Assembly (NCBI GenBank): GCA_963695095.1
Contig: CAVOFT010000002.1
Span: 1 to 28,947 of the forward strand
Direction: 5' to 3'
DNA from: an uncultured bacterium
GTDB lineage: Bacteria > Krumholzibacteriota > Krumholzibacteriia > JACNKJ01
Length of the DNA stretch: 28,947 bases
In this document: piece by piece, positions 5,167-28,947 of the stretch
Layout of the letters: each line of letters opens with the position of its first letter
Numbering within the stretch: position 1 is the first letter of the stretch
Position numbers and translations under genes: made by a program
Notes under the pieces: model-generated
Told to the model about the DNA's origin: nothing
Databases searched by the model: none
What the model saw: only the letters and a program-made list of their open reading frames with translations

Positions 5167-5181
5167 CGCTCATCTCCAAGA

Positions 5182-5195: not shown

Positions 5196-5198
5196 AGC

Positions 5199-5227: not shown

Positions 5228-5287
5228 GACCCAAGATCGCGAGGAGTCAGGCGGATCCCCGAGCCGCGTCCGCGGGCCCCCGCCCCC

Positions 5288-5315
5288 TTGACGGTAATGC
5301 ACATATGTGCATAAT
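5288..5315 (+). promoter_or_regulatory. Sigma70-type promoter of the DUF134 unit with an overlapping 16-bp palindrome
   Basis: TTGACG-N16-CATAAT; perfect palindrome ATGCACATATGTGCAT at 5297-5312. Confidence 0.65.
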
Positions 5316-5333
5316 TGGGCACGGAGGTGCCCC

Positions 5334-6569: not shown

Positions 6570-6613
6570 GGGAGGAAGGGCGCCGTGATCGCAATCCCGG
6601 TGCCGAAGTCGTA

Positions 6614-8008
6614 ATGAACAAGTCAGTCAAGACAGCGCTGCCGCAGGCCACCATCGGCACGGAAGCTATCCTCGAGAGCATCTCCGACGGCGTCTTCACT
6701 GTTGATGCCCAGTGGCGCGTCACCTCCTTCAATCGCGCCGCCGAGGAGATCACGCACATCTCCCGCCTGGACGCGATCGGGCGCCGCTGCGCGGAGGTCT
6801 TCCGCGCGAGCATGTGCGAGACCGAATGCGCCTTGCGCGAGACGATGGCCACCGGCGTCGCTGTCATCAACCGGGCCGCCTTCATCGTCGACGCCGAGGG
6901 CCGGCGCATTCCGATCAGCGTCTCCACCGCTCTTCTGCGCGACGCCACCGGGGCAGTCATCGGGGGGGCGGAGACCTTTCGCGATCTGAGCCTCATCGAG
7001 GAACTGCGCAGCGAACTGAAGGGGCGCTCCCAAGTGGGGGACATCGTCAGCCGCAGCGCAGCGATGCGCCCCGTGTTGGCGATGTTGCCTCGCGTTGCCG
7101 AGAGCGGCAGTAGCATCTTGATCCAGGGCGAGACAGGCACCGGCAAGGAGCTGGTGGCGCGGGCGATTCACGACCTCAGCCGCCGCCACGGTCCCTTCGT
7201 GGCGGTCAACTGCGGGGCGCTTCCTGACACGCTGCTGGAGTCTGAGCTCTTCGGCTACAAGGCCGGCGCCTTCACCGGCGCGGTGAAGGAGAAGCCCGGC
7301 CGCTTCGCACTGGCCCGAGGCGGTACGCTCTTTCTCGACGAGATCAGCGAGGTGAGCCCGGCCCTGCAGGTCCGGCTGCTGCGCGTCCTTCAAGAGCGGG
7401 AATACGAACCGCTCGGGGGAACGCGCGCGGAGGCCACCGACGTGCGCGTGCTCGCCGCGACCAACCGCGACCTTGCCGCCCTGGTCGCCGCCGGCGAGTT
7501 CCGGCAGGATCTCTACTACCGCATCCAAGTGCTGAAGCTCGAGCTGCCTTCCCTGCGCCAGCGCCGCGAGGACATTCCGCTGCTCGTGCAGCACTTCATC
7601 ACCCGCTTCAACGCCATGCAGGGCAAGCGCGTGACCGGCATCAGCCCCGATGCTCTGGGAGTGCTGACCGCCCACGACTATCCCGGCAACGTGCGGGAGC
7701 TGCAGAACATCATCGAGCACGCCTTCGTGCTGCTCGACGAAGGGCGCATCGAGCTCGCGCACCTGCCCGCCGACGTGGTGCCGGTCTTCTCGCGCGCGGC
7801 GAGCGGTGGCAAGTTCAGCGCGCTGGCGCGGGCGCTCGAGGCACAAGCCATTCGCGAGGCCCTTGCACGACACGGCGGCAACCGCCTCGCGGCCGCGCAG
7901 GAGCTTGGCATACACAAGAGCACCTTCTTCCGAAAGGTCCAGCGCCTTGGGATCGAGTTGCCCGCACAGGACGGCCGCTCCCATGCCAAGACGAAACGGC
8001 GGGCCTAG
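6614..8008 (+). CDS. PAS-domain sigma54-dependent transcriptional activator (bEBP) with Fis-type HTH
   Basis: PAS (ILESISDGVFTVD...FNRAAEEIT), Walker A GETGTGKE, ESELFG, GAFTGA, LFLDE, FRQDLYYR, PGNVRELQN, HTH AAQELGIHKSTFFRK. Confidence 0.95.
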   Translation: MNKSVKTALPQATIGTEAILESISDGVFTVDAQWRVTSFNRAAEEITHISRLDAIGRRCAEVFRASMCETECALRETMATGVAVINRAAFIVDAEGRRIPISVSTALLRDATGAVIGGAETFRDLSLIEELRSELKGRSQVGDIVSRSAAMRPVLAMLPRVAESGSSILIQGETGTGKELVARAIHDLSRRHGPFVAVNCGALPDTLLESELFGYKAGAFTGAVKEKPGRFALARGGTLFLDEISEVSPALQVRLLRVLQEREYEPLGGTRAEATDVRVLAATNRDLAALVAAGEFRQDLYYRIQVLKLELPSLRQRREDIPLLVQHFITRFNAMQGKRVTGISPDALGVLTAHDYPGNVRELQNIIEHAFVLLDEGRIELAHLPADVVPVFSRAASGGKFSALARALEAQAIREALARHGGNRLAAAQELGIHKSTFFRKVQRLGIELPAQDGRSHAKTKRRA

Positions 8009-8145
8009 ACGGTCGCCACGCCGCGCCTCTGCGCGGCTCCAGGGTCGGCGCCGCGCGACTGCGCTCTCCATTTGCTCAGCCCGCATCGATGCGCAAGGTC
8101 CATCCATCGCAGGGGATAGCACAGTCTACACGGATGGCCCGCGCC

Positions 8146-8161
8146 TGGCGCGATCTCTGCA
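8146..8161 (+). promoter_or_regulatory. Sigma54 (-24/-12) promoter of the NifX-like/ATPase/radical SAM operon
   Basis: TGGCGC-GATCT-CTGCA gives exact GG-N10-GC spacing, 25 bp upstream of the TTG start and directly downstream of the bEBP gene. Confidence 0.7.
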
Positions 8162-8186
8162 GTGTCGATGGCGGGAGGTGTCTGAG

Positions 8187-8597
8187 TTGAGAGTCGCCCT
8201 GACCATCTGGGAAGGACACATCGCACCGGTCTTCGATGTCAGTCGTGAGGCCGAGCTGCTGACGATCGACGACGGCATCGTGACCGGTCGCCAACGTGCG
8301 AGCATCACGACGGCGACGGCGACCGAGAAGATCGCCCGCCTGCAGGAGCTCGGCGTGGAGACCCTGATCTGCGGCGCTATCTCCGCACCCTTGCAGCATG
8401 AGCTGTCCAGCGGTGGCCTGCGCGTCATCGGCTTCGTCGCCGGCGAAACCGAGGCAATCGTGCAGGCGCTCATCGCGGGCAAGCTCCCCAGTCCGGCCTT
8501 CGCCATGCCCGGCTGTTGCGGCCGGAGGCTGCGCATCCGCGGTGGCGCGGGTCGCGGCGGCCCGGGCCGGCGCTGGGGCCGCAACGGCCGCCGGTGA
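8187..8597 (+). CDS. NifB/NifX-like family protein
   Basis: TTG start after GGAGG; MRVALTIWEGHIAPVFDVS...LQELGVETLICGAIS...FAMPGCC with a Gly/Arg-rich tail. Confidence 0.8.
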   Translation: MRVALTIWEGHIAPVFDVSREAELLTIDDGIVTGRQRASITTATATEKIARLQELGVETLICGAISAPLQHELSSGGLRVIGFVAGETEAIVQALIAGKLPSPAFAMPGCCGRRLRIRGGAGRGGPGRRWGRNGRR

Positions 8598-8625
8598 GGC
8601 CAACCACAACGAGAAGGAGTCAACA

Positions 8626-8997
8626 ATGCCAGGAGGAGATCGGCGGGGTCCTGAGGGACGAGGCCCGCGAACGGGGCGCACAGCCGGCTTCTGCGCCGGC
8701 AATGACCAGCCCGGCAGCATGAATCGGGGTTGGGGCAGGGGAGGCGGCGCCGGTGGCGGCGGTCGCCACCGCAACTGGTTTCATGCCACCGGCCTTACCG
8801 GTTGGCAGCGCGGCGTGCGCGGTGGAGCTGTCTGCAGCAAGCCGATCACCAGCGCCGCCCCGGCGGCTGATCGGGAAGCGCTCCAGCGCCAGATTGCCGA
8901 GCTCAAGCGCAATCTTGCCGCGCTGGAAGCAAGCCTGAGCGGATCCGCCGGGCCAGGGTCGGCCGTTGGGCCGGAGACCGGGACGGCGGGCCGATGA
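8626..8997 (+). CDS. DUF5320 family protein
   Basis: RBS AAGGAG; MPGGDRRGPEGRGPRTGRTAGFCAG...RNWFHATGLTGWQR and a C-terminal coiled coil. Confidence 0.85.
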   Translation: MPGGDRRGPEGRGPRTGRTAGFCAGNDQPGSMNRGWGRGGGAGGGGRHRNWFHATGLTGWQRGVRGGAVCSKPITSAAPAADREALQRQIAELKRNLAALEASLSGSAGPGSAVGPETGTAGR

Positions 8998-9368
8998 AGA
9001 TCGCCATCACGGCGGCGGGGCCGGCTCTGGACTCTGCCAGCGACCCCCGCTTCGGTCGCTGCGGCTACTTCGTGATCGTCGAAACCGCCGACATGTCCGC
9101 CGTCGGTGTTGCGAACCCGAACATCGACCGCGGTGGCGGCGCGGGCATCCAGTCGGCACAACTCATGGCGAGCCATGGCGTCCAGGCCGTGCTCACCGGC
9201 AACTGCGGACCTAACGCCCACCAGACGCTCAGCGCCGCGGGCATCGCGGTGGTCATCGGCTGTACGGGTAGCGTCGCCGAGCTCGCCCGGCGCTATGCGG
9301 CAGGCGAGCTGAGCGGCGCCACGGGACCGAACGTGGACAGCCACGCCGGGCTGAAGCCGCGGCGATGA
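8994..9368 (+). CDS. NifB/NifX-like family protein
   Basis: MKIAITA...DPRFGRCGYFVIVE...NPN...GGAGIQSAQ...AVLTGNCGPNA...NVDSHAG. Confidence 0.88.
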   Translation: MKIAITAAGPALDSASDPRFGRCGYFVIVETADMSAVGVANPNIDRGGGAGIQSAQLMASHGVQAVLTGNCGPNAHQTLSAAGIAVVIGCTGSVAELARRYAAGELSGATGPNVDSHAGLKPRR

Positions 9369-11188
9369 GCCGGCCGCTGCGCATCGCCGTGGCCAGCGGT
9401 AAGGGCGGCACCGGCAAGACGACCATCGCCACGAACCTTGCTGTCCTGCTAGCCGAGACGGGCGCTCGCGTTGCCTTCCTGGATTGCGACGTCGAGGAGC
9501 CAAACGGGCACATCTTCCTCGCGCCGACGCTCGCGACGCAAACGGCGGTCACGCTGCCCGTGCCCGTCGTCGATCCCGCGCGCTGTACGCTCTGCGGGGC
9601 CTGCGGGGACGCCTGCCGCTTCTCGGCGATTCTGCCCCTGCCGACCCAGGTACTGACCTTCCCCTCGCTCTGCCACGGTTGCGGCGGCTGTGCGCTCGCC
9701 TGTCCCGCCGGGGCAATCCAGGAGACGCCGCGGGCAATCGGTGTCGTCGAGACGGGGGTCGCCGGCCGGCTCGCGTTTCTCCAAGGGCGGCTCGATGTCG
9801 GCCAGGCGCTGTCGCCGCCGGTGATCCACGCCGTGCTGGCGGCCGCGCCCAGGGAGCACCTGCTCGTCATCGACGCGCCGCCGGGGACCGCCTGTCCGGT
9901 GGTCGCAGCCGTGAAAGGGGCGGACCTGGTACTTCTGGTCGCCGAGCCGACGCCCTTCGGCCTCAGCGACCTGCGGCTCGCCGTGGACACCGTGCGCGAA
10001 CTCGGCCTGCCCTGCGCCGTCGTCATCAATCGCGCCGGCGCAGGCGAGGACGAGCTGCGCGCCTACTGCGCAGCGGAGCAGCTTGCTGTGCCCCTGGCGA
10101 TTCCGGACGACCGCCGGGTCGCGGAAGCTTACTCCCGCGGTGAGCTGGCGATCGTCGCGCTGCCCTCACTGCGGACTGCCTTTCAGACGCTCATCGCCCA
10201 GCTGCCGGCGCTGGCGGCCGTGTCCCGCCCGCGGCCCGCCGCGCGCCCGCCGGCGCCACTCGAGCCTCCTGCTGCAGCGCCGCCGCCGCCGCCGCGCGCG
10301 GGAGACCTGCGCGAACTCGTCGTGCTCAGCGGCAAGGGCGGCACGGGCAAGACCAGCGTCGCCGCCTCCTTCTTCGCGCTCGCCGAGCGCGCGGCGGTGG
10401 CGGACTGCGACGTCGACGCCCCCGACCTGCATCTCGTCCTCGATCCCCGCGTCCTCGAGCGGGGCCACTTCGCCGGCGGCCGGACGGCGAGCATCGACAC
10501 CGCACGCTGCGACGCCTGCGGCCGCTGCGTCGAGCACTGCCGCTTCGACGCGATCCAGCGCGTGGGGACGAACGGGAGCGCGACCTTTCGCGTCGATCCC
10601 CTCGCCTGCGAGGGCTGCGGTGTCTGCGTCGATTGCTGTCCGGTGGGCGCGGCGACCCTGCTGGAGACGGCGGGCGGCGAGTGGTTCATCTCGGCGACGC
10701 GGCACGGCCCCATGGCTCACGCTCGCCTCGGCATCGCCCAGGAGAACAGCGGCAAGCTGGTCTCGCTCGTGCGGCGGCAGGGCGCCCATGTCGCCCTCGC
10801 CGGCCGGCGCGAGCTCTTGATCAGCGACGGCTCGCCGGGCATCGGCTGTCCGGTGATCGCCTCGATCGCCGGGGCGCGCCTGGCGCTCATCGTCACGGAA
10901 CCGACACTCTCCGGCCTGCACGACCTGCGCCGCGTCGCCGAGCTCTGCCGGCAGTCGGGCGTGGCTGCGGCCATCTGCATCAACAAGGTCGATCTCAATC
11001 TCGAAGTCTGCGCGCAGATCGAGGCTGAGGCGGCTGTGCGCGGGATTCCCGTGCTCGGCCGCATTCGCTACGACGCAGCGGTGACCGCGGCCCAGGTGAA
11101 ACGGCTGTCCGTCGTGGAGTGCGGCGACAGCCCCGCGGCCGCCGACATCCGTGCGCTCTGGGAGCGCGTGAAGCAGGCGAGCGCCTGA
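9365..11188 (+). CDS. Tandem fusion of two MinD-superfamily P-loop ATPases, each with an inserted 2x[4Fe-4S] ferredoxin domain (COG1149-like)
   Basis: Two SGKGGTGKT motifs and two DCDV motifs; Cys motifs CTLCGACGDAC, CHGCGGCALACP, CDACGRCVEHC and CEGCGVCVDCCP; Pro/Ala linker ~10214-10305. Confidence 0.9.
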   Translation: MSRPLRIAVASGKGGTGKTTIATNLAVLLAETGARVAFLDCDVEEPNGHIFLAPTLATQTAVTLPVPVVDPARCTLCGACGDACRFSAILPLPTQVLTFPSLCHGCGGCALACPAGAIQETPRAIGVVETGVAGRLAFLQGRLDVGQALSPPVIHAVLAAAPREHLLVIDAPPGTACPVVAAVKGADLVLLVAEPTPFGLSDLRLAVDTVRELGLPCAVVINRAGAGEDELRAYCAAEQLAVPLAIPDDRRVAEAYSRGELAIVALPSLRTAFQTLIAQLPALAAVSRPRPAARPPAPLEPPAAAPPPPPRAGDLRELVVLSGKGGTGKTSVAASFFALAERAAVADCDVDAPDLHLVLDPRVLERGHFAGGRTASIDTARCDACGRCVEHCRFDAIQRVGTNGSATFRVDPLACEGCGVCVDCCPVGAATLLETAGGEWFISATRHGPMAHARLGIAQENSGKLVSLVRRQGAHVALAGRRELLISDGSPGIGCPVIASIAGARLALIVTEPTLSGLHDLRRVAELCRQSGVAAAICINKVDLNLEVCAQIEAEAAVRGIPVLGRIRYDAAVTAAQVKRLSVVECGDSPAAADIRALWERVKQASA

Positions 11189-11206
11189 GCAAGCGAGGTG
11201 GGGAGC

Positions 11207-11707
11207 ATGCAGGCCAAGCAGACGGCGGCGCCCGGCGGTGAGTCGCCGGCAAGGGAGGCGGCCAGCCAGGAGGTGCTGGCCAGGTTGGGGGCGAGGGAGC
11301 ATCGCCACTGCCTGCTCTGCGGTGCCGCTCATCCCGGCGGCCTGCGCCTGGCCTTCGTAGTCCAGCCGGATGGCGCAGTCGAGGCAGTGATGCCGGGCCG
11401 CGCCTTTCTGGAGGGTTATCCGGGTATGCTCCACGGGGGCGCCATTGCTGCGCTGCTCGATGCGGCCATGACCAACGCGCTCTTCGCCCGCGGTCTCGTC
11501 GGCCTGACGGCGGAGCTGACGGTGCGCTTCCTCGCGCCCGTTCGTCTCGATCGGCCCGCCCTCGTGCGGGCGGCGCTCACCGGCGCCCGGGTCCGGCCTC
11601 CCTACTGCCTGCGGGCGGAACTCGAGCAGGACGGCCAGCGCGTGGCCCGCGCCACCGGCAAATTCCTGGCGAAGCCCCCGGGGAGTCCGCAGGAGCGACA
11701 GCCGTGA
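11207..11707 (+). CDS. PaaI family (hotdog-fold) thioesterase
   Basis: HCLLCG...EGYPGMLHGGAIAALLDAAM...TAELTVRFLAPV...VARATGKF. Start may instead be GTG 11198. Confidence 0.88.
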   Translation: MQAKQTAAPGGESPAREAASQEVLARLGAREHRHCLLCGAAHPGGLRLAFVVQPDGAVEAVMPGRAFLEGYPGMLHGGAIAALLDAAMTNALFARGLVGLTAELTVRFLAPVRLDRPALVRAALTGARVRPPYCLRAELEQDGQRVARATGKFLAKPPGSPQERQP

Positions 11708-12654
11708 ACGCGCGCTCGCCGCAGCTGGTCTACGGTCCCGTGCCCTCGCGGCGTCTCGGTCGCTCGCTGGGTATCGATCTCGTTCCCTTCAAGACCTGCA
11801 GCTACGACTGCATCTATTGCCAGCTCGGGCGAACCACCGTGCAGATAACCGCGCTGGCCAGCGGCATCTCGCTCGCTGGAGTGCTCGACGAGCTGGCGGA
11901 GCGCCTGGCCCAGGGTCCCACGCCCGACTACATCGGGCTTGCCGGCTCGGGGGAGCCCACGCTGCATCCGGAGCTGGGGCGCCTGATCGACGACATCAAG
12001 CGCCTGACGGCCGTGCCCGTGGCCGTGCTCACGAACGGCTCGCTGCTCTGGCGTCCGGCCGTCCGGGAGGCACTGGCGGCGGCAGATCTGGTGCTGCCCT
12101 CGCTCGACGCCGGCGATCCGGCCACCTTCCAGCGGGTGAACCGGCCGCACCCCGACATCCCCTTCGCGCAGATGGTGGAGGGCTTGGTCGACTTCGCGGC
12201 TGCCTACAGGGGCGAGCTCTGGCTCGAGGTCTTCGTCCTGCGCGGCATCACCGATGACGCGGCAGCGATCGCGAAGATCGCGGCGATCGCCGAGCGGATT
12301 CACCCGGCGCGGGTGCAGCTCAACACGGCGACGCGTCCGACCGCCGACCCCGATGCGCGGCGGGCGACGGCGGCGACACTGGCGCACCTCTGTCCGCACT
12401 TCACAGGCCGCTGCGAGGTCATTGCAGAGAGCCACCGGGCCGCGCGGGGTCCGGTGGCGAGCGACGCCGATCCCAAGCCGGCGATCCTGGCCCTGCTCGC
12501 GCGGCGCCCCTGCACCGTGGCCGACATCGCGACGGGACTGAACCTGCAGCCAAACGCGGTGGTCAAGGCCCTAGCTGCGCTCGACGCCTGTGGGGCCCTG
12601 GGCTGCGAGCGGCGGGCGGGGACCGTCTACTACGCAACGGCGAGGTCGCGATGA
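11704..12654 (+). CDS. Radical SAM protein (COG0731 / TYW1-related family)
   Basis: YGPVPSRRLGRSLGIDL, CSYDCIYC (CxxxCxxC), GSGEPTL, VLTNGSL, PSLDA; C-terminal winged-helix-like segment RRPCTVADIA. Confidence 0.92.
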   Translation: MNARSPQLVYGPVPSRRLGRSLGIDLVPFKTCSYDCIYCQLGRTTVQITALASGISLAGVLDELAERLAQGPTPDYIGLAGSGEPTLHPELGRLIDDIKRLTAVPVAVLTNGSLLWRPAVREALAAADLVLPSLDAGDPATFQRVNRPHPDIPFAQMVEGLVDFAAAYRGELWLEVFVLRGITDDAAAIAKIAAIAERIHPARVQLNTATRPTADPDARRATAATLAHLCPHFTGRCEVIAESHRAARGPVASDADPKPAILALLARRPCTVADIATGLNLQPNAVVKALAALDACGALGCERRAGTVYYATARSR

Positions 12655-12672
12655 GCAGCGAGGTGGGCGAGG

Positions 12673-13089
12673 TCAGCGCCTGCTTCGCCGCGCATCGAGG
12701 CTCCAGGGTCCTGCCCCGGCAGCGGAGAAGTAGAGCCAGACGAAGCAATACAATGCTGCCGCCACGCCGCCGTTCTGCACGGGCCAGAAGCCCTGGGGCT
12801 GGTGGAACTGGAAGTAGGCCACGGCCATCTCGCCGGCGAGCAGGAAGGCGACGGGCCGCGTGAAGAGGCCCACGAGCATGAGCAGGCCGCCGCCCACTTC
12901 GAGCAGGCCGCCGATGCCGATCTGCGTGAGGAGCTTCGCGGTGCTGTCGTCCGGCGGCATGCCCATCGGCCAGGCGAAGAGCTTCATCGTGCCGGCCTGC
13001 AGGAACATGAGCGCGGCCACGATGCGCAGCAGGCCTTGCAGGGCGGGACCAGAGCGGATCCACTTCGCGAACAGGCCAGTCTCGGCCAT
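12673..13089 (-). CDS. DoxX family membrane protein
   Basis: LRIVAALMFLQAGTMKLF...GLLEVGGGLLMLVGLFTRPVAFLLAGEMAVAYF...AGAGPWSLD; GGAGG RBS. Confidence 0.92.
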   Translation of the reverse strand: MAETGLFAKWIRSGPALQGLLRIVAALMFLQAGTMKLFAWPMGMPPDDSTAKLLTQIGIGGLLEVGGGLLMLVGLFTRPVAFLLAGEMAVAYFQFHQPQGFWPVQNGGVAAALYCFVWLYFSAAGAGPWSLDARRSRR

Positions 13090-19594: not shown

Positions 19595-22500
19595 TCATTT
19601 CAGAAGGATCATCCGGCGCGTCTCCTGCAGCTCGCCGGCGCTGATCCGGTAGAAGTAGACGCCCGAGGCCTCGCCGCTGGCGTCCCAGCGCAGCTGGTGC
19701 TCGCCCGCGGCGAACTCCTCGTCGGCCAAGGTCGCCACGCGGCGGCCCTGGATGTCGAAGATGAGCAGCTCCACCCGCTCGGCTTCCGGTAGGCTGAACT
19801 TGATCGTCGTCACCGGATTGAAGGGGTTCGGGTGGTTCTGGCCCAGCGCGTACTCCGCGGGCAGCTCGATCACCCGCGGTTGCTGGGTGAGCAGGGTGCC
19901 GCCCGCTCCCGCGAAGCCCGCGGTCTGGCCGCGGAAGGTGATCTGGTCGATGTAGATGTCGTCGCTGTCGTTGCTGGCGTCGCACTGGAAGCGGATCTTG
20001 GCGTTCGTCGGGTAGCTGTAGCTCGCCCGCGGGATCTGCACGGTCGCCGTGTAGAAGCTGCCGTTGTTGAAGCTGGTCCCCCGCGCGAAGCTGGCCACCG
20101 TCTGCCAGGCGCTGCCGTTGTAGTACTGGAGCCAGAAGTCCTCGCCCGTCTCCATGCTGATCGCGATGAAGTAGAACTCCACCTCGAGGTCGACATAGGC
20201 CGACACGTTGTAGCCGGCCGTGTGGTAGAACGACGAGCTCGTGCCGCTGTTGTCCTGGATATCGATGGCCGCGCTGCCCTGCCAGGCGTAGGTGCCGCCC
20301 GTGTAGCGCAGGCAGTCCGTGCCGCCGTCCGTGTAGCTGCCGAAACCGCTCTCGAAGTCGTCGTAGGTGATGGTCTGCCAGGTGCCGCCTGTCGGCTGGG
20401 TCACCGTGATGTAGGCCGTCTTGGTCTCGGGATCCGAACCGTAGGCGTTGCTCGCCGTCAGGCTCACGGTGTAGCTGCCGGCCGTCGCGTAGCTATGACT
20501 GGGACTCTGCGCGGTGGACGTGCCCCCGTCGCCGAAGGTCCAGCTCCAGGCCGTGGGCATGTTCGTGGAGGCGTCGGTGAACTGCACCGCCAGCGGGGCG
20601 AGGCCCTCCGTCGGCGTGCCGCTGAAGGCCGCCACCGGCGCCGCGCCGGCGTAGCCCGTGACGCTGATGTCGTCGAAGGCCATGCCGTCCGTGGCGATCG
20701 GGTAGTTGTCGTACTGCTGGAACTTCACGACGAAGGTGGAGCTCAGGCTGAGCCCGTTGGCCGCGCAGAGGGCGTCCACGTCCAGGGCGAAGTTGTACCA
20801 GATGTTGTTCGTGTAGCTGGCGCCCGGCAGGTTGAAGACCTTGACGAAGCTGCTGCCTCCGTTGGCCGAGAAGTAGACGCCGTCCTGGGTGTGCGTCTCG
20901 TCGCCGAAGTCCTTCCACCAGAAGCTGAGATCCACCTGTGCCAGGCCGGCCAGGTCCAGGCGCAGCCAGGCCTCGTTCTGGGCATAGGTGCCGCTGGTCG
21001 AAGTGTCCATCGTCAGGTGCCGCGTGCCCGAGTGCGGCGTGTTGGCCGTGGTCACCAGGATGCGCCCGGGCGAGGGGCTCACCGTCGCCCAGTAGCCGTC
21101 CAGCACCCCGGACTCGAAGCCCGTGCTGTAGGGCAGCGTCGCCCAGGTGCCCGCAGGATTGGTCACGGTGATGTAGCCCGTCTTCACCTCGGCGTCACTG
21201 CCGACGCTGTTGGTGGCGGTCAGGCTCACCGTGTAGCTGCCGGCCGTGGTGTAGCTGTGGCTGGGATTCTGTGCCGTCGAGCTGCCGCCGTCGCCGAAGG
21301 TCCAGGCCCAGCTCGTGGGCAGGCCCGTGGACTGGTCGGTGAAGCTCACGGCCAGCGGGAAGTTGCCGGTCGTGGGGCTGCCGATGAAGGCCGCCACCGG
21401 CGCCACCGGGCCGCCGCCGCCACCCACCGCCGCCGCCGCGTCCACCATGCCGTAGCCGGTGTAGCGGTCCCAGCCGGCGCCGGACTCCACGGAGGTGATG
21501 TCCTGGGCCGTGTTCACGAGCTGATTGCGGATCTGCACATTGGTCCAGGTCGGGTTCTTCGACTTGATCAGCGCGCAGACACCGGCCGCATAGGGCGTGG
21601 CGCAGCTCGTGCCGTTGAAGAAGGGCTCGTAGTCCCCGCTGCGATAGCCGCCGCTGCCGATGATGTCCGTCGTCGGCAAGATGGTGGGGGCGATGATGTC
21701 CACGGCGCCGGCCGCATTCGCGGTCGTGACGCCATAGTTGGAGCCCCACCAGCGCTCGCCGTCGCAGGTGTAGCCGTTGGGATCGGTGCTGACGCCGGGG
21801 TTCACCTCGCCGCTGCTGGAGGAGCTGCGCTTGCGCTCGCCGCAGGGGCTGGCGGCGCCGACGCCGATCACGTTGGCGTGGATGGCCGGGTAGCTGATCG
21901 TGCTCATGTTCTCGTTGCCGGTGGCGGCGAGAATCACGCAGCCCGCGTTGTAAGCGTAATTGATCGCCGTGTCGGTGGCCGGGTCGCTCGAGATCGCCGC
22001 GCCCAGGCTCATGCTGATGATGTGGGCGCCGTTGTCGGCGGCCCAGTAGAGCGCGTTCTGGATGTAGCTGAAGTACATCGACCCGGCGCTGTTGGCCACC
22101 TTGCAGGGCATGATGCTGGAGCCGGCGGCAATGCCCGCCGCACCGATGCTGTTGTTCACCGAAGCGGCCACGCCCGCGCAGCAGGTGCCGTGGCCGGCGC
22201 CCGTGGCGTCGTCGTCGGGGTTGCTGTCGTTGTTGCCGAAGTCGTAACCGGCGACCCGGCGCAGGTCCGGGTGATCCACGTCCACGCCGCTATCGAGGAT
22301 GGCGATGATGACGCTGGCCGATCCGTAGCCCTGGCTGGCGTCCCAGGCGGCCTGGGCGTTGGCGTCGAAGCCCGGCGTGCCCACCGTGGTGGCCAGGGTG
22401 TGGTCATAGGTGCCGCCCCAGTCCAGACCCGGCAGCTGGGCGGTGTTGTTGTGGCCCCAGTGGCTGGGGTGCAGGGGATCGCTGGGCACGGCCATCGGGA

Positions 22501-22990
22501 AGGCCCGCCAGTCCAGGGACACCGCCTCCACGTCGGGGTCGGCCGCGAAGTCGCGCGCCAGGGCGAGCAGATCGCGACCTGCCGCGATGCGCAGCAGGAA
22601 CCAGCGGTCCACGCCCAGTTCCACGCTGAGGGCGGCATTGCGCGGCGCATCGTAGGGGCGCTCGACGGCGCTCACGCCGGCCGCGGCGGCCAGGGCGTCC
22701 ACGCCGGGCAGGCCCGTGCGGGCCGTCCGCAGCGTCGCCCCGCGCTGCAGGGGCAGATCCAGGCTGGCGCGCTCCATCGCCTCCATGCGGAATTGAACGA
22801 GCAGCCGGTCCGGCGCGTAGGGCAGCAGGGCCGCCGCGTCCGGCTGGAAGCCGTTCTGGGCGGGGGCGAAGGGCCGCGGCGCGAGCGTGCGCGCGGCGTC
22901 GGCATCGAAGGCATTGAGTGGATCCGCGCCCATGGCCGCTGCAGGCAGCAGCCAGAGGAGCACGAGCAGACCGATCGCGAACTTCTTCAT
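19595..22990 (-). CDS. Secreted S8 (subtilisin-family) serine protease with two PKD domains and C-terminal FlgD-Ig/T9SS-type domain
   Basis: Signal peptide MKKFAIGLLVLLWLLPAAAMG; catalytic IAILDSG, GHGTCCAG and NGTSCATP; oxyanion AATGN; two PKD domains (WTFGDG...HSY...GSYTVSLTA); LGQNHPNPFNP tail. Confidence 0.93.
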   Translation of the reverse strand: MKKFAIGLLVLLWLLPAAAMGADPLNAFDADAARTLAPRPFAPAQNGFQPDAAALLPYAPDRLLVQFRMEAMERASLDLPLQRGATLRTARTGLPGVDALAAAAGVSAVERPYDAPRNAALSVELGVDRWFLLRIAAGRDLLALARDFAADPDVEAVSLDWRAFPMAVPSDPLHPSHWGHNNTAQLPGLDWGGTYDHTLATTVGTPGFDANAQAAWDASQGYGSASVIIAILDSGVDVDHPDLRRVAGYDFGNNDSNPDDDATGAGHGTCCAGVAASVNNSIGAAGIAAGSSIMPCKVANSAGSMYFSYIQNALYWAADNGAHIISMSLGAAISSDPATDTAINYAYNAGCVILAATGNENMSTISYPAIHANVIGVGAASPCGERKRSSSSSGEVNPGVSTDPNGYTCDGERWWGSNYGVTTANAAGAVDIIAPTILPTTDIIGSGGYRSGDYEPFFNGTSCATPYAAGVCALIKSKNPTWTNVQIRNQLVNTAQDITSVESGAGWDRYTGYGMVDAAAAVGGGGGPVAPVAAFIGSPTTGNFPLAVSFTDQSTGLPTSWAWTFGDGGSSTAQNPSHSYTTAGSYTVSLTATNSVGSDAEVKTGYITVTNPAGTWATLPYSTGFESGVLDGYWATVSPSPGRILVTTANTPHSGTRHLTMDTSTSGTYAQNEAWLRLDLAGLAQVDLSFWWKDFGDETHTQDGVYFSANGGSSFVKVFNLPGASYTNNIWYNFALDVDALCAANGLSLSSTFVVKFQQYDNYPIATDGMAFDDISVTGYAGAAPVAAFSGTPTEGLAPLAVQFTDASTNMPTAWSWTFGDGGTSTAQSPSHSYATAGSYTVSLTASNAYGSDPETKTAYITVTQPTGGTWQTITYDDFESGFGSYTDGGTDCLRYTGGTYAWQGSAAIDIQDNSGTSSSFYHTAGYNVSAYVDLEVEFYFIAISMETGEDFWLQYYNGSAWQTVASFARGTSFNNGSFYTATVQIPRASYSYPTNAKIRFQCDASNDSDDIYIDQITFRGQTAGFAGAGGTLLTQQPRVIELPAEYALGQNHPNPFNPVTTIKFSLPEAERVELLIFDIQGRRVATLADEEFAAGEHQLRWDASGEASGVYFYRISAGELQETRRMILLK
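20401..21405 (-). repeat. Two direct-repeat PKD modules (~21163-21405 and ~20401-20643) within the S8 gene
   Basis: APVAAFIGSPTTG...WAWTFGDGGSSTAQNPSHSY versus APVAAFSGTPTEG...WSWTFGDGGTSTAQSPSHSY. Confidence 0.85.
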
Positions 22991-23200
22991 CGGTGATCTC
23001 CCCTCGAACAGGTGATGGACTGTGGCCATGCTGGATGTCAGGCGAAAACCAAGACCAACCTGCGTGGGGCCCGTCCGCTGGGCGGGGCCCCGGATGCCGG
23101 GTCGATGTGCGCAGCAATTCTATTCCCGCCGGGGAGCGGCCTGCAAGCGGAGGCATGCGGCGATCGGCCGCTGGCGGCGATTCCCCGCCATCGCGTATAC

Positions 23201-23216
23201 TGGCCGGAAGCTTGCT
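23201..23216 (+). promoter_or_regulatory. Sigma54 (-24/-12) promoter upstream of the multiheme cytochrome
   Basis: TGGCCG-GAAGC-TTGCT has exact GG-N10-GC spacing and a TTGC -12 box, about 52 bp before GTG 23269. Confidence 0.65.
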
Positions 23217-23268
23217 TCGCGTCTCCCGCGGCGCCCGTCCGCATCGATCCCATCCGGGGAGTCCGCTC

Positions 23269-24361
23269 GTGCCCATCCTGTCGACCGCCTGTCTGCTCGG
23301 CCTCCTGCTGCTCGGCGCCCAGCCCGCCCTCGGCCTTCCACGAGGGCGGCGTGGCGACCTGTGGCGCCTGCCACATCCTGCATGGCAGCGAGGACGGCCT
23401 GCCCGCCGATCCGGGCCTGCCCGGGGGCGTCAGCGGCCTGCTGCGCTTCGCCTCTTCCACGGACCTGTGCCTGTCCTGCCACGCAACCGCCCTCGGGGCG
23501 GTGCTGGCCGGCGATCCGGCCTACCCGCCGCCCGAGCGCGGGCCGGGCAATTTCGTCTTCCTGTTCGCACTCAACCTGAATGACGCTCCGGACGGGCTTT
23601 TCTACCCGATCGGCGGCCACCGCGCGGGTCACAGCCTGGTTTCGGCCGATCTCGGCCTCTTCGAGGATCCGGATCACCCGCAGGCGCCGGGGGGCGACTA
23701 CCCCGCCGACGCGCTCGGCTGCACGAGCTGTCACGATCCCCACGGCAATACCAACTACCGCCTGCTGCGCGGCGCGGGGGAGCAGGACGCGGCCGGCTAC
23801 AGCTTCCACTACCCCGCTCCGCAAGGCACGGGGCCGGCGCTGGACGGGCCGCCCGAGGCGCTCGCGAATCACACGGCCTACCAGGCCGGCTGGTCGGAGT
23901 GGTGCGCCAATTGCCATGGCTTCTACCACGATGAGTCCGGCGCCGGCTTCGCGCATCCTGTGGACCGGCCGCTGGACGGCGAGGCGCGCCAGTCCTACAA
24001 CGGCTACGCCGGCCCGGACAACCCCACGGGCGGCGACTACTGGACCGCCTACCTGCCCGAGGTGCCGCTCGAGCAGGCGAGCATGGCCGTGGACGGCACG
24101 GCCGGCGCCTTTCAGGACTGCCGCGTCACCTGCATGAGCTGCCACCGGGCCCACGCCACGAGCGCGCCGGCCGCCACCCGCTGGGATCCCAACGTGAACT
24201 TCCTCGACGAGGACGGCCAGGTCTCCGGCTCCTATCCCCTGCCCAATCCCTACGCCCACCCCGCGCAGCGCGCCCTCTGCGTGAAGTGCCACTACGAGGA
24301 GTCCACCGAACACGGGCAGGGCGCCGCCTGCCTGAGCTGCCACCGGGACCTGCACGACTGA
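23269..24361 (+). CDS. OmcS-like multiheme c-type cytochrome with 7 CxxCH motifs (one apparent +1 frameshift at ~23332 after the signal peptide)
   Basis: GGGGAG RBS, GTG start and signal peptide MPILSTACLLGLLLLGAQPAL in one frame; mature FHEGGVATCGACH from 23336 in the next frame. Heme motifs: CGACH, CLSCH, CTSCH, CANCH, CMSCH, CVKCH, CLSCH. Confidence 0.88.
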
Positions 24362-24430: not shown

Positions 24431-24931
24431 ATGGCCAGTTTCATCTTCAAGGGCAGCTCGCACAGCACGGTGGGCGAACTGCCCCGCGTGGGCAGCGCTG
24501 CCCCGGATTTCCGCCTCGTCAAGACCGACTTCTCCGTGCTCACCCTCGCCGATCTCAAGGGACAGCGGGTGGTCCTGAATGTCTTTCCCAGCCTCGCCAC
24601 TGGCGTCTGCTCGGCCAGCATCCGTCGCTTCAATGCCGAGGCCGCGGGGCTGAAGAACGCGACCGTCCTTTGCGTGTCGATGGACCTGCCCTTCGCCCAC
24701 AAGAGCTTCTGCGAAGCCGAGGGGCTGGACCGCGTCGTGCCCTGCTCCGACTTCCGCGACGGGGCCTTCGGCCGGACCTATGGCATGAAGATGGCCGGCG
24801 GCGATTGGACAGGCCTGCTCGCCCGCTCGGTGATCGTGCTCGACACGGCCGGCAAGGTGCTGCACAGCCAGCTCGTGCCGGAGACCGGGAGCGAGCCCGA
24901 CTACGCCGCCGCCCTGGCCGCTCTCGCCTAG
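24431..24931 (+). CDS. tpx: Thiol peroxidase (atypical 2-Cys peroxiredoxin)
   Basis: AAGGAG RBS; VGSAAPDF, VLNVFPSLATGVC (PxxxTxxC), CVSMDLPFAHKSFC, GLLARSV, EPDYAAAL. Confidence 0.93.
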   Translation: MASFIFKGSSHSTVGELPRVGSAAPDFRLVKTDFSVLTLADLKGQRVVLNVFPSLATGVCSASIRRFNAEAAGLKNATVLCVSMDLPFAHKSFCEAEGLDRVVPCSDFRDGAFGRTYGMKMAGGDWTGLLARSVIVLDTAGKVLHSQLVPETGSEPDYAAALAALA

Positions 24932-25002: not shown

Positions 25003-25177
25003 GAGGGCAGGATGCGCCCTTACTCGGCACCGCCTGAACCCCGATTCCAGTCAAGAAGCTGCCCCGGAGAGCCGATTCCCCTAGCGGGCAGGGGCGCTCG
25101 CCCGACCGCGAGCGTCCGCCTTTCGCCCTGACCGCTCGGGTTCGCCGATGGCAATCAAGGTCCGGGATGGGGAGACC

Positions 25178-28100
25178 ATGTTTCAGAGGCCGCGCCGGCT
25201 CAGTCTACTGATCGCCCTCGCCTCGCTGCTCGCCGGGGCGGGCGGCGTCATCGCAGCGCCCTGCTACGTCGCCAGCGGCAACTACGTCGGCGACGGCGGC
25301 AATGCGCGCGCGGTCGCGGGCCTGGGCTTCCAGCCTGTCGTCGTCATCGTCAAGGGCAACCGCAACGATGGCGCCGTCTGCCGCAGTACCGACATGCCCG
25401 TGGGCTACTGCAAGCATCTCTCCGGCGCCTGGGACCTGCAGGCGAATCGCCTGCTCAGCCTGGATCCGGATGGCTTCAGCATCGGTTCCGATGCCGATGT
25501 GAACGCCTCCGGCAGCAACTATTACTGGGTGGCCTTCAGCGCCGGCGACGAGATCCGCGTGGGGAGCTACACCGGCTGGACCATCGCCAACCAGACCGTC
25601 ACCGGCCTGGGCATCGATCCGGACCTCGTGCTCGTGATGGGCGAGGGCGCCACCCGCGCCTGGCACCGCAACCGGGAGATGACGGCGGGCTACAGCCTGC
25701 CCTTCAGCACCGAGACGGCGACCACGAATCGCATCATCGATCTCGTCGCCGACGGCTTCCAGGTCGGCACCTCATCGGACGTGAATGCCGCCTTCACGCG
25801 CTACCACTACATCGCCTGGAGCCAGTCGCCGGGTCACCTGGCCGCAGGGCGCTACTGGGGCAATGGCCTGGACAACAGCGCCGTGGAGCTGGGCGGCTTC
25901 CAGCCCGACTACGTCCTGGTGAAGTCCGGCGGCTCCACCAGCGGCGCCCAGCGCCCCTCCGCCCTGGCCGGCGACGCCACGCAGAGCTTCGATGCGCTGG
26001 CCAACTACGCCAACGCCATCCAGGCCCTCACGGCCACGGGCATCGAGCGGGGCTCCAGCGCCGCGGTCAACCAGAACGGCCAGGCCTTCTTCTGGCTGGC
26101 TGCGCGGGGGGCGGACCACGCCGAACTGAGCCTCGCGCTCGAAGCCGATGATCTCACGCCCCAGCCGGGGCAGACGGTCCTCCTCACCCTGAGGCTCGCC
26201 AACGCTGGTCCGCGCACGGCCCAGGGTGTCGAGCTTGCCGTGCCGGAGCCGGAGGGCCTCGTCTTCGAGTCCGTCATGGTGGAAGGCGTAGCCGGGGACG
26301 CCGGCGCCGGCGCCTGGGCCATCGCTCCGCTGCCGGCGGGCATGGCAACGAGCGTGGAGATCAGCGCGCGGGTGCTGGAGTCGGTGGTCGGCACGATCGC
26401 CGTCACGGGAAGCATTGCGGCGGCGGCCCTGCCGGATCTCCACCCCGCGGATGACAGCGCCACGCTCCTGCTGCAGTTGCCCGGCGCGGACCTGAGCCTG
26501 GCCCTCAGCGCCCTGCCCTCCGTGGTGGAAGAGGGCGATTCCCTGTGGCTGGCCATCGATCTGCACAATGGCGGTCCGGACGCCGCCACCAACGTCCAGG
26601 TGCTGTTCGCGCTGCCGGCCGGGCTGGGCTACCTGGCCCATCAGGCGAGCGCCGGCAGCTACAATCCCGCCTCGAGCAAGTGGCAGCTCGCCACCTTCGC
26701 GGCCGGCGCCACCGCGACGCTGCGCATCCAGGTCTGGGCCCTGCCCGGCAGCGAGGGCGGGCTCTACACCGCGACGGCCGCGGTCACGGAAGCGCTGCCC
26801 CCCGATCCCACGCCGGCCGACGCGGCCGCTGCCGTCGACATCGCCGTCACCGCCTTCGAGCTGTTCACGCTCTCCGCGCTGGGCGACACCTGGATCGAGG
26901 AAGACCATCCCTACGACGAACACGGCGATGAGATTGAAATGAAGGTCCGGCGCCGGTCGGGCGCCGACCGCTGGACGCTCCTCGGCTTCGATCTGACGAG
27001 CGTTCCGCCGGCGAGCCGCGTGCAGTCCGCACTGCTGCAGGTGACCGTGCAGTCGAAGGACGACAGCGGCTTGCCCGTGAACATCCATCGGGCGACAAGG
27101 GCCTGGAACGAAACCACCATCAACTGGAACGGCTTCGGGGAGGCCGTCGATCCCGAGCCGGCCGCCAGCTTCCTGCCGCTCATCCAGCAGATGTACAGCA
27201 TCGAGATCGGCGGGCTGGCCGCCGACTGGGTGGCGGGCACCTCGCCCAATCAGGGCCTCGCCTTCCTCGCCAGCTCGTGGGACAGGGAGTCCAAGTACTA
27301 CACGAAGGAGGAGGCCAACTCGAGTCGCCGTCCCCGCCTGCTCGTGTACACCTCGGGGCTCGCCGACCTAGCCGTCGCCCTGGGCGTCGATGACGCCGAG
27401 CCCGACGTGGGCCAGCGCCTGCGCTTCACGGCCACGGTGCAGAACACGGGCCCTCGCGCCGCGGACGGCCTCGCGCTGCGCGCGGCCCTGCCCGTGGGTC
27501 TGGAGTTCGCCGCCGCCGCCCCCAGCGCCGGCGCCTACGACGCCGCCCGCGGGCTCTGGATCCTGGGCCGGCTGGCCCAGGGCGCCAGCGCCACCCTGCT
27601 CCTGGATGCCGACGTCCCTCCAGGCAGCGCCGGCCTCACCCTGGTCGACAGCCTCAGCGTGGCGAACTGCGCCCAGGCCGACCCCGATCCCGGGGACAAC
27701 GCCGCGGCGATCAGCCTGCGCGTACGGGCCGCCGATCTCGCCCTCTCCCTCGCGGTCGATGAGCCCAATCCGCTGCCGGGTGCGCTGATCAACTACGAGC
27801 TGCGCGTGGACAACCTGGGCCCGGATGCGGCCACGGCCGTCGTCCTGCGCGACTCCCTGGCCGCCGGCCTCGCCTTGCAGAGCGCGACGCCGAGTCAGGG
27901 CAGCTTCGATGACCTCGGCGGGCTCTGGCAGGTCGGCTCCCTCGCGGCCGGCGCCTGGGCCACCCTCGAGCTGGCCGTGCAGCTGCAGGCCGAGGGCGAG
28001 CTGGAGCACCTGGCCTGGCGGGTCGGCGCCGATCAGGGCGACCCGGTGGCGGCCAACGACACGACGCGCCTGACGGTGACCCCGGCCGCGGCCGACCTCG

Positions 28101-28947
28101 CCCTGGCCATGAGCGTGGACGACGATACGGCGGGCGAAGGCGAGCCCCTCAGCTTCACGCTGATCGTGACCAACCTGGGTCCCCAGGCGGCCACCGGCGT
28201 GCAGATCGGCGACCTGCTGCCGGCCGGCCTGCTCTACCTGGGCGACACGCCGAGCCAGGGCATCTACCTGCCGGCCAGCGGCCTGTGGGCCCTGGGCGAC
28301 CTGAGCGCGGGAGCGAGCGCGACCCTGGTTCTCGACGCCACGCCGGCCCCCGGCACGGCGGGCAGCGAGATCGAGAACAGCGCCGAGCGCATCGCCTCGA
28401 CGCCGGCCGATCCCGAGCCCGCCAACGACAGGGCCGGCGTCCGCATCGCGGTGGGCGGCACCGACCTCGCGCTGGAGCTCAGCCTGGATGCCGAGGCGGC
28501 CGACCCTGGCGACCTGCGCCTGCTGACCCTCGTCCTGCGAAATCTGGGCTCTCAGCCGGCGAGCGGAATCAGCGTCCGTGACAGCCTGCCGGCGGGCCTG
28601 CTCTTCGAGTCCGCCAGCCCCGAGCTGGGTGGCTACGATGCCGGCGCCGGCCTCTGGAGCCCGGACACGCTCGCCGCGGGGGACAGCCTGCAGCTCCGGC
28701 TGGAGGCGCGGGTGGCCGGCGGCTGGGCGGGCCAGCAGCTCCTCACGCGGGCCTGGATCGCGGCCGCCGACCAGGCCGACCCCACGGCCGCGAACGACTC
28801 GACGAGCGCGGCCCTCCTCGTCCGGGCCGCTGACTTGACCCTCGGCCTGGAGATCGACGACGACTCGCTCGAGGTGGGCGAGGCCTGTGAACTTCTCGCC
28901 ACGCTGGCGAACGCCGGCCCCCAGCCCGCGGTGGGGGCCGGCGTCCT
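25178..28947 (+). CDS. Large secreted/surface protein with DUF11 repeats and a DNRLRE-like domain (3'-partial, more than 1250 aa)
   Basis: GGGGAG RBS and ATG 25178; signal peptide MFQRPRRLSLLIALASLLAGAGGVIA. The same frame holds at every point checked to the window end, so the track lacks it (no stop). A(D/E)Lx(L/V) repeats and DTWIEEDHP...LLGFDLTSVP. Confidence 0.88.
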   Translation, partial: MFQRPRRLSLLIALASLLAGAGGVIAAPCYVASGNYVGDGGNARAVAGLGFQPVVVIVKGNRNDGAVCRSTDMPVGYCKHLSGAWDLQANRLLSLDPDGFSIGSDADVNASGSNYYWVAFSAGDEIRVGSYTGWTIANQTVTGLGIDPDLVLVMGEGATRAWHRNREMTAGYSLPFSTETATTNRIIDLVADGFQVGTSSDVNAAFTRYHYIAWSQSPGHLAAGRYWGNGLDNSAVELGGFQPDYVLVKSGGSTSGAQRPSALAGDATQSFDALANYANAIQALTATGIERGSSAAVNQNGQAFFWLAARGADHAELSLALEADDLTPQPGQTVLLTLRLANAGPRTAQGVELAVPEPEGLVFESVMVEGVAGDAGAGAWAIAPLPAGMATSVEISARVLESVVGTIAVTGSIAAAALPDLHPADDSATLLLQLPGADLSLALSALPSVVEEGDSLWLAIDLHNGGPDAATNVQVLFALPAGLGYLAHQASAGSYNPASSKWQLATFAAGATATLRIQVWALPGSEGGLYTATAAVTEALPPDPTPADAAAAVDIAVTAFELFTLSALGDTWIEEDHPYDEHGDEIEMKVRRRSGADRWTLLGFDLTSVPPASRVQSALLQVTVQSKDDSGLPVNIHRATRAWNETTINWNGFGEAVDPEPAASFLPLIQQMYSIEIGGLAADWVAGTSPNQGLAFLASSWDRESKYYTKEEANSSRRPRLLVYTSGLADLAVALGVDDAEPDVGQRLRFTATVQNTGPRAADGLALRAALPVGLEFAAAAPSAGAYDAARGLWILGRLAQGASATLLLDADVPPGSAGLTLVDSLSVANCAQADPDPGDNAAAISLRVRAADLALSLAVDEPNPLPGALINYELRVDNLGPDAATAVVLRDSLAAGLALQSATPSQGSFDDLGGLWQVGSLAAGAWATLELAVQLQAEGELEHLAWRVGADQGDPVAANDTTRLTVTPAAADLALAMSVDDDTAGEGEPLSFTLIVTNLGPQAATGVQIGDLLPAGLLYLGDTPSQGIYLPASGLWALGDLSAGASATLVLDATPAPGTAGSEIENSAERIASTPADPEPANDRAGVRIAVGGTDLALELSLDAEAADPGDLRLLTLVLRNLGSQPASGISVRDSLPAGLLFESASPELGGYDAGAGLWSPDTLAAGDSLQLRLEARVAGGWAGQQLLTRAWIAAADQADPTAANDSTSAALLVRAADLTLGLEIDDDSLEVGEACELLATLANAGPQPAVGAGV
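26120..28947 (+). repeat. DUF11-type Ig-like repeats, six complete plus one partial, ~120-123 aa each
   Basis: Units start at 26120, 26486, 27362, 27731, 28091, 28460 and 28829; pattern (A/T)(D/E)Lx(L/V)...NxGPxxAxGVxxxDxLPxGL...GxW...DPxPxND. Confidence 0.85.

Follow-up and report, generated by a model that had tools for sequence, protein, structure and literature searches.

The closest described relative of the protein considered here is OmcS of Geobacter sulfurreducens, a cytochrome that polymerises into wires, and the accessible part of one survey lists its RefSeq homologs for Geobacter, Geoalkalibacter and Anaeromyxobacter (PMC10954620). Among the Geobacter paralogs only OmcS itself is known to polymerise, according to the available portion of a recent preprint, which describes the functions of the OmcS paralogs as unknown (bioRxiv 10.1101/2025.11.06.686851). 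The accompanying osc cluster has been assigned roles in folding (OscH), secretion (OscEFG) and morphology (OscD), as stated in the accessible text of PMC13194489. Outside Geobacter, a FeGenie screen from 2020 reported OmcS in a metagenome-assembled genome (MAG) of Krumholzibacteria and, in the part available, called this the first description of iron-reduction potential there (bioRxiv 10.1101/2020.09.22.307553), and iron-cycling genes have been reported in Zixibacteria and Ignavibacteriales MAGs, again according to part of the source (PMC8478452). The subject of the present analysis is an OmcS-family gene carried by a stretch of 28,947 nucleotides from an uncultured bacterium (contig CAVOFT010000002.1 of assembly GCA_963695095.1), hereafter the window, in which an earlier note, made from the letters alone, had placed an OmcS homolog at 23269..24361. 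The gene belongs to a large, apparently undescribed branch of the OmcS family whose proteins carry seven heme motifs, and no description of a seven-heme OmcS relative was found in the literature searched.

A seven-heme relative of OmcS

The chain named in the earlier note lies inside an open reading frame (ORF) at 23012-24361(+). Translation of 23339-24361(+) gives a product of 340 residues (P0001) that begins HEGGVATCGACHILH, and the TTC codon (Phe) at 23336-23338 directly precedes it, so that the mature chain has the 341 residues that had been proposed. The peptide strings quoted at the time are all found in this translation, which contains, in order, CLSCH, CTSCHDPHG, WCANCH, CMSCHRAHA and QRALCVKCH. 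The heme motifs quoted are therefore present, but one more had been overlooked: the mature chain holds seven CxxCH motifs, not six. Downstream of CVKCH, the counterpart of the last OmcS motif, the chain continues with YEESTEHGQGAACLSCHRDLHD, and the seventh motif lies within HGQGAACLSCHRDLHD at the C-terminus, on an extension of 18 residues. Having seven CxxCH motifs, the protein would fall outside an OmcS family defined by exactly six hemes.

A phmmer search against 177,635 distinct Protein Data Bank (PDB) sequences returned OmcS (6ef8/6nef) as the sole match, with an E value of 9.2e-25. The alignment pairs query residues 1-138 with OmcS 2-150 and residues 139-288 with OmcS 185-351, and includes the last OmcS motif as well, so that the similarity extends beyond the CxxCH motifs. 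All six OmcS motifs align in the same order, Phe1, His2 and His16 are present, and both histidines stand in register with those of OmcS, as had been claimed. The loop after DPHG was said to be missing, and this is borne out because OmcS residues 151-184 have no counterpart in the query. Scans of Pfam and NCBIfam matched the generic doubled CXXCH domain (PF09699, 49.3 bits vs a cut-off of 20.6; TIGR01905, 46.9 vs 25.2) and no OmcS-specific model.

The predicted structure agrees with the alignment. An AlphaFold2 model built from an 86-sequence alignment has a mean predicted local distance difference test (pLDDT) score of 81.5 and a predicted template-modelling score of 0.83; a model computed without an alignment was discarded (pLDDT 33). 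Foldseek placed the former against 6ef8_A at E 1.6e-15 with a template-modelling score of 0.69, nothing else in the PDB falling below E 1, and VIA-align superposed model residues 1-322 on OmcS 2-407 with Z 25.9, a root-mean-square deviation of 3.6 A over 301 aligned residues and 33% identity. The last 18 residues, with motif 7, extend past the OmcS C-terminus and are modelled with confidence, since pLDDT reaches 86-90 over residues 301-330 and drops to 65 in the final ten. The protein is a true OmcS homolog by sequence and predicted fold, and the model argues against a fold unlike that of OmcS.

Relatives of the seven-heme protein are numerous. A word-indexed protein search found 1968 proteins at E <= 1e-3 among 8000 scored candidates, and among the matches listed (the best 120) identities range from 48 to 100% and source names include Candidatus Eisenbacteria, candidate division KSB1 and Calditrichaeota. 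Against 1.84 billion representatives of 50%-identity clusters, phmmer matched 523 clusters at E <= 1e-3, 234 at <= 1e-10 and 31 at <= 1e-30. The 86-row alignment consists of P0001 and 85 of the best 120 matches, after the window's own product and 34 shorter or lower-cover rows were left out. In it, mature C9, C12, H13 and H16 are invariant (86/86), Phe1 is kept in 78 rows and His2 in 84, and the residue preceding Phe1 is Ala in 69 of the 86 rows, with Ala at position -3 in 53 (alignment A1). Seven CxxCH motifs are counted in 79 rows, six in five and eight in two. Sixteen histidines are invariant or nearly so, vs fourteen axial positions, and three of them lack an OmcS counterpart in the phmmer alignment, namely those of the NHT sequence, of the HG pair in the tail and of motif 7. 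In OmcS, the residue corresponding to His16 ligates a heme that belongs to the following subunit.

A FastTree phylogeny covered 137 family members, each with an N-terminal motif that could be recognised and a mature chain of 300-480 residues; 16 rows of the seven-heme group were picked by hand. The midpoint root serves for drawing only, and neither it nor the deep branches should be given much weight. All 23 rows with the HG...CxxCH tail form one clade (SH-like support 98) nested in a 54-row clade (98), which also includes cluster-linked six-heme proteins from MAGs labelled Zixibacteria and Ignavibacteriales, together with second-position paralogs from Krumholzibacteria. The seven-heme clade includes sequences from Calditrichota, KSB1, Eisenbacteria and the window's phylum. 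A six-heme protein of the window's own genome, described below, sits in a separate 14-row clade (support 98), drawn beside a 60-row clade of longer six-heme proteins at a weakly supported fork (84, drawn open).

Host lineage, distribution and companion cluster

At the protein level, the longest rpoB segment of the assembly (P0122) shares 95% identity with a MAG labelled Candidatus Latescibacteria, 80% with MAGs labelled Candidatus Krumholzibacteria and about 70% with many more of both labels; against five named MAGs, RpoB gave 62-66% identity to every one, a comparison that does not resolve the phylum. The G+C content of the genome is 70%. Because RpoB is nearest to Latescibacteria/Krumholzibacteria-labelled MAGs, a Desulfuromonadia origin is excluded, and by this marker sequence the host is of a lineage carrying those labels, not of Geobacterales/Desulfuromonadia. 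The earlier note had suspected a non-Geobacter genome, and both the RpoB result and a neighbouring protease with a type IX sorting tail agree with it. It had also spoken of a lineage not known for nanowires, which was overstated: OmcS genes in Krumholzibacteria have been in print since the 2020 report, to judge by its available part (10.1101/2020.09.22.307553), and a family match at E <= 1e-10 occurs in 44 of 151 genomes of the phylum sample, the window's genome (G000) included, and in 37 of the 117 of high quality. Its interpretation as a whole was right about homology and taxonomy, proposed a filament formation that is a candidate mechanism only, and went too far in the novelty of the lineage.

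With G000 left out, family matches occur in 36 of 61 genomes of taxonomic family f4, in 4/9 of f6 and in 3/9 of f1. The seven-heme type, defined in the genome scan as a match of at least 49% identity reaching query residue 335 or beyond, was found in 21 genomes of the phylum sample, 20 of which also have a second family match; this lies on the same contig, no more than 2 kb away, in at least 9 of the 21. Likewise, all five genomes of other phyla with 'solo' seven-heme genes carry a second family member, which in three Calditrichota genomes is about 15 kb off on the same contig.

A scan with one genome per species yielded 55 loci, whose titles name Calditrichota, Zixibacteria, Krumholzibacteria, Ignavibacteriales, Fibrobacteraceae, Gemmatimonadales, Thermoanaerobaculia and others; these are depositors' labels, some of which look unreliable. 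Clustering of the ORFs of 43 of these loci (L005-L047) revealed a set of conserved neighbours: an NHL-type propeller directly upstream (24 loci), a barrel-like protein of ~700 aa (15), a lipoprotein of ~195 aa, a protein of ~350 aa, a PpiC-type isomerase and an upstream multiheme cytochrome (14 each), a very large multiheme cytochrome (13) and a YVTN-type propeller (9). They go with six-heme members of the family, which end QRSLCNKCHVKD. The five loci with a seven-heme tail (L005-L008 and L034) have no conserved cluster neighbour within the 6 kb examined. In three syntenic loci of Calditrichota type (L005 487-10233, L007 and L008) the seven-heme gene stands between hemA-hemB-hemL, a histidine kinase with an OmpR-type regulator, and ccsA-resB, a stretch that unites heme synthesis, regulator, cytochrome and heme attachment. 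Two OmcS-family genes are present in six of the 43 loci (L023, L037, L039, L041, L045 and L047), adjacent in five and about 1.1 kb apart in L037, an arrangement that recalls omcS-omcT in Geobacter.

In the window's own genome the cluster families occur together on the other contig, C1, at about 1.4888-1.4997 Mb (tblastn; G000:C1:1488303-1499697, equal to L064 4304-15698), about 1.5 Mb from the seven-heme gene. The earlier note was correct that this genome encodes an OmcS relative, but it had overlooked the closer one: the six-heme cytochrome of the cluster has an intact signal peptide, then FHDGGVADCQGCHTMH, and aligns along its whole length with OmcS (E 2.3e-53). In a language-model look-up the 730-aa protein of the cluster fell near protein clusters of ~700 aa, all commonest in Thermodesulfobacteriota; two of the top three carry automatic names as outer-membrane proteins, which is a lead only. 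Used as a single query, the 730-aa protein had no hit in four of the five genomes from other phyla, which is not evidence of absence. The heme maturation genes that the note had suggested looking for are present, as ResB and CcsA (System II heme attachment) are encoded in the genome. In two relatives (G052 and G055) the gene order is lipoprotein, prolyl isomerase, 42-heme cytochrome, NHL protein, six-heme cytochrome and seven-heme cytochrome. The osc machinery is reportedly called widespread and ancient in the title of a study by Shen et al. from 2025, and the survey of its spread in that study may already cover these phyla.

Proposed role and rival explanations

The seven-heme protein is probably an outer-surface electron-transfer cytochrome served by the osc-like cluster, a reading held with moderate confidence because the seven-heme gene closes such a cluster in relatives and the cluster is present in its own genome. 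The Sec pathway would export a seven-heme c-type cytochrome with an OmcS fold, System II cytochrome c biogenesis would attach the seven hemes covalently in the periplasm, and the osc-like machinery would probably export and assemble the product, which jointly with that machinery would perform extracellular electron transfer (EET) to minerals or partner cells. Within this outer-surface reading, the preferred mechanism is head-to-tail polymerisation as in OmcS, suggested by analogy and held with somewhat less than even confidence: each subunit would use its N-terminal arm (Phe1, His2, His16) to complete a heme site in the one that follows, and the added heme of the C-terminal tail would be located where the two subunits join or close by. 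A two-chain prediction of the mature chain, run without hemes on alignment A2 and with controls not included, gave an interaction prediction score from aligned errors (ipSAE) of 0.00 in both runs, a value that has no bearing on polymerisation either way.

Several points weigh against this picture. In G000 and in the same-genus genome G011 the cluster ends at the six-heme gene and the seven-heme gene lies elsewhere, and the likeness of the cluster to the Geobacter osc cluster is one of composition, drawn from domain types and one language-model lead. As sequenced, the window copy has no in-frame signal peptide, and export route, localisation, electron-transfer role and polymerisation would all be deductions from sequence. 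His16 is kept in the six-heme paralogs too and therefore does not mark which paralog, if any, polymerises. Finally, OmcS ends directly after heme motif 6, at the place where subunits meet in the 6EF8 filament; a heme-bearing tail could for this reason block OmcS-type stacking as easily as extend it.

The missing signal peptide has to be judged against the state of the assembly. The window is the complete contig C2 of a two-contig assembly, and blastn relates it to C1 in three blocks: C2 1-56 is identical to C1 3062510-3062455, C2 12682-25162 and C1 3055513-3043013 share 91.5% identity across 12.5 kb in which 888 mismatches and 134 gap openings occur, and C2 25123-28947 matches C1 at 99.2%. Positions 57-12681 are largely absent from C1 (comparison region G000:C1:3039191-3062510). 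Given these blocks, C2 looks like a strain-variant version of a chromosomal region, not a second locus, and probably represents a 'bubble' of strain variation that was placed in one bin with the main contig. C1 carries an allele of the seven-heme cytochrome 96% identical to the window copy. The interval 23269-24361, which the earlier note treated as one gene, measures 1093 nt and is not divisible by three, hence not one open frame, because signal peptide and mature chain are in different frames: GTG 23269 begins a good signal peptide, MPILSTACLLGLLLLGAQPALG, in a frame other than that of the mature chain. An upstream in-frame ATG start (ORF 23012-24361) was considered and rejected, since it yields no signal peptide. 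At the junction, the C1 allele has CTCGCCTTC vs CTCGGCCTTC in the window and reads QPALA followed directly by FHEGG in a single frame; further downstream it has a 1-nt insertion of its own, after the position matching window base 24244. Single-base indels are not confined to this gene, as rpoB of the same assembly (G000:C1:3153811-3157572) is broken into four frame segments and the domains of rpoD (L064 2310-4237) are spread over three overlapping ORFs. Because rpoB and rpoD are frame-split as well, an indel error of the assembly is the probable source of the additional G at 23332/23333, and in an assembly so rich in single-base indels frameshifts do not count as pseudogene evidence without read support. 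Three DNA sequencing runs were listed as matches, each with only 5-6% of sampled words; the run contigs that fall on the window are short patches from relatives, the nearest to the frameshift (23298-23333) being a 36-base local fit of <90% identity that stops short of the site. No RNA run matching the genome was found among the sequencing runs searched.

On this evidence it is quite unlikely that the window copy is a pseudogene, in which the one-base insertion would be real, no signal peptide would therefore be fused to the cytochrome and no functional protein would come from this allele. Such a reading would account for signal peptide and mature chain standing in different frames as sequenced, for a gene caller's product (P0002, 336 aa) that begins inside the mature chain at the position of Val6, and for the fact that no in-frame alternative start yields a signal peptide. 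It is opposed by the frame-split state of the essential rpoB and rpoD, by the 134 gap openings between window and C1, by a C1 allele that is intact at the insertion site, and by the allele substitutions, which in the mature coding part are mostly synonymous (25 synonymous vs 9 non-synonymous codon differences). Similarly small is the probability that an OmcS-fold cytochrome has been put to a use other than EET, for example as a periplasmic carrier for a soluble-acceptor or detoxifying reductase. The solitary position in the window beside a thiol peroxidase-like gene would fit a carrier of this kind, as would the three Calditrichota loci, with heme-synthesis genes, a two-component system and ccsA/resB as neighbours and no porin alongside; however, the peroxidase neighbour is not conserved, the sole structural relative is an extracellular wire, and the ancestral linkage is to a cluster of barrel, lipoprotein, prolyl isomerase, multiheme cytochrome and NHL protein.

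A rival that has to be taken more seriously, though it too is rather doubtful, is an accessory paralog that does not itself polymerise, on a par with OmcT, OmcJ or GSU2501; soluble or surface-attached, it would relay electrons to or from a filament or the 42-heme cytochrome, or would cap or anchor a six-heme filament. The six-heme paralog is far closer to OmcS (E 2.3e-53 vs 9.2e-25) and stays with the cluster, the seven-heme gene is nearly always paired with a six-heme one (20/21 genomes, and 5/5 in other phyla), the extra heme is on the C-terminal end past the OmcS endpoint, and no Geobacter OmcS paralog is known to form wires, according to the available part of the preprint cited above (10.1101/2025.11.06.686851). 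Against an accessory role stand the size of the seven-heme clade and the N-terminal arm, as conserved as in OmcS, which is hard to explain if it never meets another subunit. An extension of the outer-surface reading, tentative and on balance doubtful, is that the seven-heme branch represents a second type of wire, either a filament of seven-heme subunits or a mixed filament with the six-heme paralog, in which the C-terminal heme would bridge or branch the heme chain at the junctions. Assembly of such wires would fall to a machine of osc type, common in Krumholzibacteriota, Calditrichota, KSB1, Eisenbacteria and neighbouring phyla. If this were true, uncultured sediment phyla would be major wire-based metal respirers.

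Cytochrome nanowire structures are known from few cultured organisms, and for the OmcS type the PDB searches found G. sulfurreducens OmcS (6EF8/6NEF) only. What is new is a distinct and widespread seven-heme clade, whose extra heme lies past the OmcS C-terminus and whose genes are almost always accompanied by a six-heme homolog and a cluster of osc type. Many uncultured sediment phyla carry both kinds of OmcS relative, a six-heme one beside an assembly-like cluster and a seven-heme one with an added end heme. A caution follows for marker-gene screens, whose 'OmcS' hits combine two or more distinct proteins. Should the seven-heme form polymerise, it would offer a new wire architecture and a natural experiment on lengthening heme chains; if it does not, it would be a clear candidate for an adaptor that feeds or terminates wires. 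Either way, these proteins are concrete targets for expression and cryo-electron microscopy.

Features of the locus and comparison with known systems

Table 1. Features of the seven-heme gene, its neighbours in the window, and the companion cluster on contig C1
Feature	Position	Strand	Basis
S8 subtilase, 1144 aa, two PKD domains, type IX secretion C-terminal sorting domain; divergent neighbour	19595..23029	-	Pfam
GGGGAG, possible ribosome-binding site, 7 nt 5' of the GTG start	23256..23261	+	inferred from sequence reading
Signal-peptide coding stretch MPILSTACLLGLLLLGAQPALG, frame differs from mature chain	23269..23334	+	translation; C1 allele peptide matches
One-base insertion, GG vs single G in C1 allele, parting signal-peptide and mature frames	23332..23333	+	blastn of alleles
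Mature seven-heme OmcS-family cytochrome, 341 codons and stop	23336..24361	+	translation, phmmer, model
CxxCH motif 1, CGACH	23360..23374	+	aligned to OmcS motif
Mature His16 codon	23381..23383	+	in register with OmcS His16; invariant in 86/86 aligned members
CxxCH motif 2, CLSCH	23468..23482	+	translation, OmcS alignment
CxxCH motif 3, CTSCH, then DPHG	23720..23734	+	translation, OmcS alignment
CxxCH motif 4, CANCH	23903..23917	+	translation, OmcS alignment
CxxCH motif 5, CMSCH, then RAHA	24131..24145	+	translation, OmcS alignment
CxxCH motif 6, CVKCH, last motif of OmcS	24278..24292	+	translation, OmcS alignment
CxxCH motif 7, CLSCH, C-terminal extension absent from OmcS	24329..24343	+	translation; model matches OmcS over residues 1-322 only
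Redoxin/AhpC-TSA thiol peroxidase-like protein, 70 nt past cytochrome stop	24431..24931	+	Pfam
Protein of >1266 aa, six DUF11 repeats with DUF7483, CARDB and CBM96-like parts; runs off end	25148-28945	+	
Cluster gene 1, 730-aa barrel-like protein			no Pfam/NCBIfam hit
Cluster gene 2, LpoB-like lipoprotein			weak Pfam/NCBIfam hit
Cluster gene 3, PpiC-type prolyl isomerase			Pfam/NCBIfam
Cluster gene 4, multiheme cytochrome, two frame-split pieces with 24 and 18 motifs; 42 in intact relatives			
Cluster gene 5, NHL protein, frame-split			Pfam/NCBIfam
Cluster gene 6, six-heme cytochrome, 367 aa	G000:C1:1498594-1499697 (L064 14595-15698)		

The cytochrome gene is solitary in the window, with the divergent S8 protease on one side and the thiol peroxidase-like gene on the other (Table 1). 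The window neighbours, the thiol peroxidase-like gene included, had no match beside the homolog of the same-genus genome G011. The DUF11-repeat protein at the end of the window is probably a very large surface protein. Elsewhere in the window, a row of genes at 8398-12654 (+) encodes a DUF5320 protein, a 607-aa tandem P-loop protein of CbiA/ParA type with 4Fe-4S ferredoxin domains, a thioesterase-fold protein and a radical SAM protein, and sits 3' of a sigma-54 activator with a PAS domain.

With OmcS of G. sulfurreducens (GSU2504; 6EF8/6NEF) the window protein shares the fold over the whole OmcS chain, the mature N-terminus FH.GGV..C..CH..H with His16 in register, and the DPHG, WCANCH, CHRAHA and QRxLCxKCH motifs. 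Unlike OmcS, it bears a seventh CxxCH on its C-terminal extension, is about 66 residues shorter and without the 151-184 loop, is about 26-33% identical to OmcS, and comes from a host phylum of Krumholzibacteria/Latescibacteria type; furthermore, OmcS polymerises into conductive filaments, whereas for the window protein polymerisation is a proposal.

The six-heme homolog of the same genome, with its orthologs in Zixibacteria-, Krumholzibacteria- and Ignavibacteriales-labelled MAGs, belongs to the same family and has 40% identity to the seven-heme protein, the same N-terminal arm and the same signal-peptidase site, and in relatives the two genes are adjacent. It differs by ending QRSLCNKCHVKD as OmcS does, by its closer relationship to OmcS and its different clade, and by keeping its place next to the NHL propeller and the other cluster genes.

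The closest parallel for the whole arrangement is found in Geobacter, where OmcT, OmcJ and GSU2501/OscC accompany OmcS and the osc cluster spans GSU2493-2500. In both cases a genome holds more than two paralogs of the OmcS family or a pair of them, and one is linked to an accessory block. The block described here resembles osc by composition, as it includes a prolyl isomerase and a beta-propeller along with further cytochromes and a putative outer-membrane channel; unlike osc, the cluster of these Fibrobacteres-Chlorobi-Bacteroidetes (FCB) relatives has a 42-heme cytochrome.

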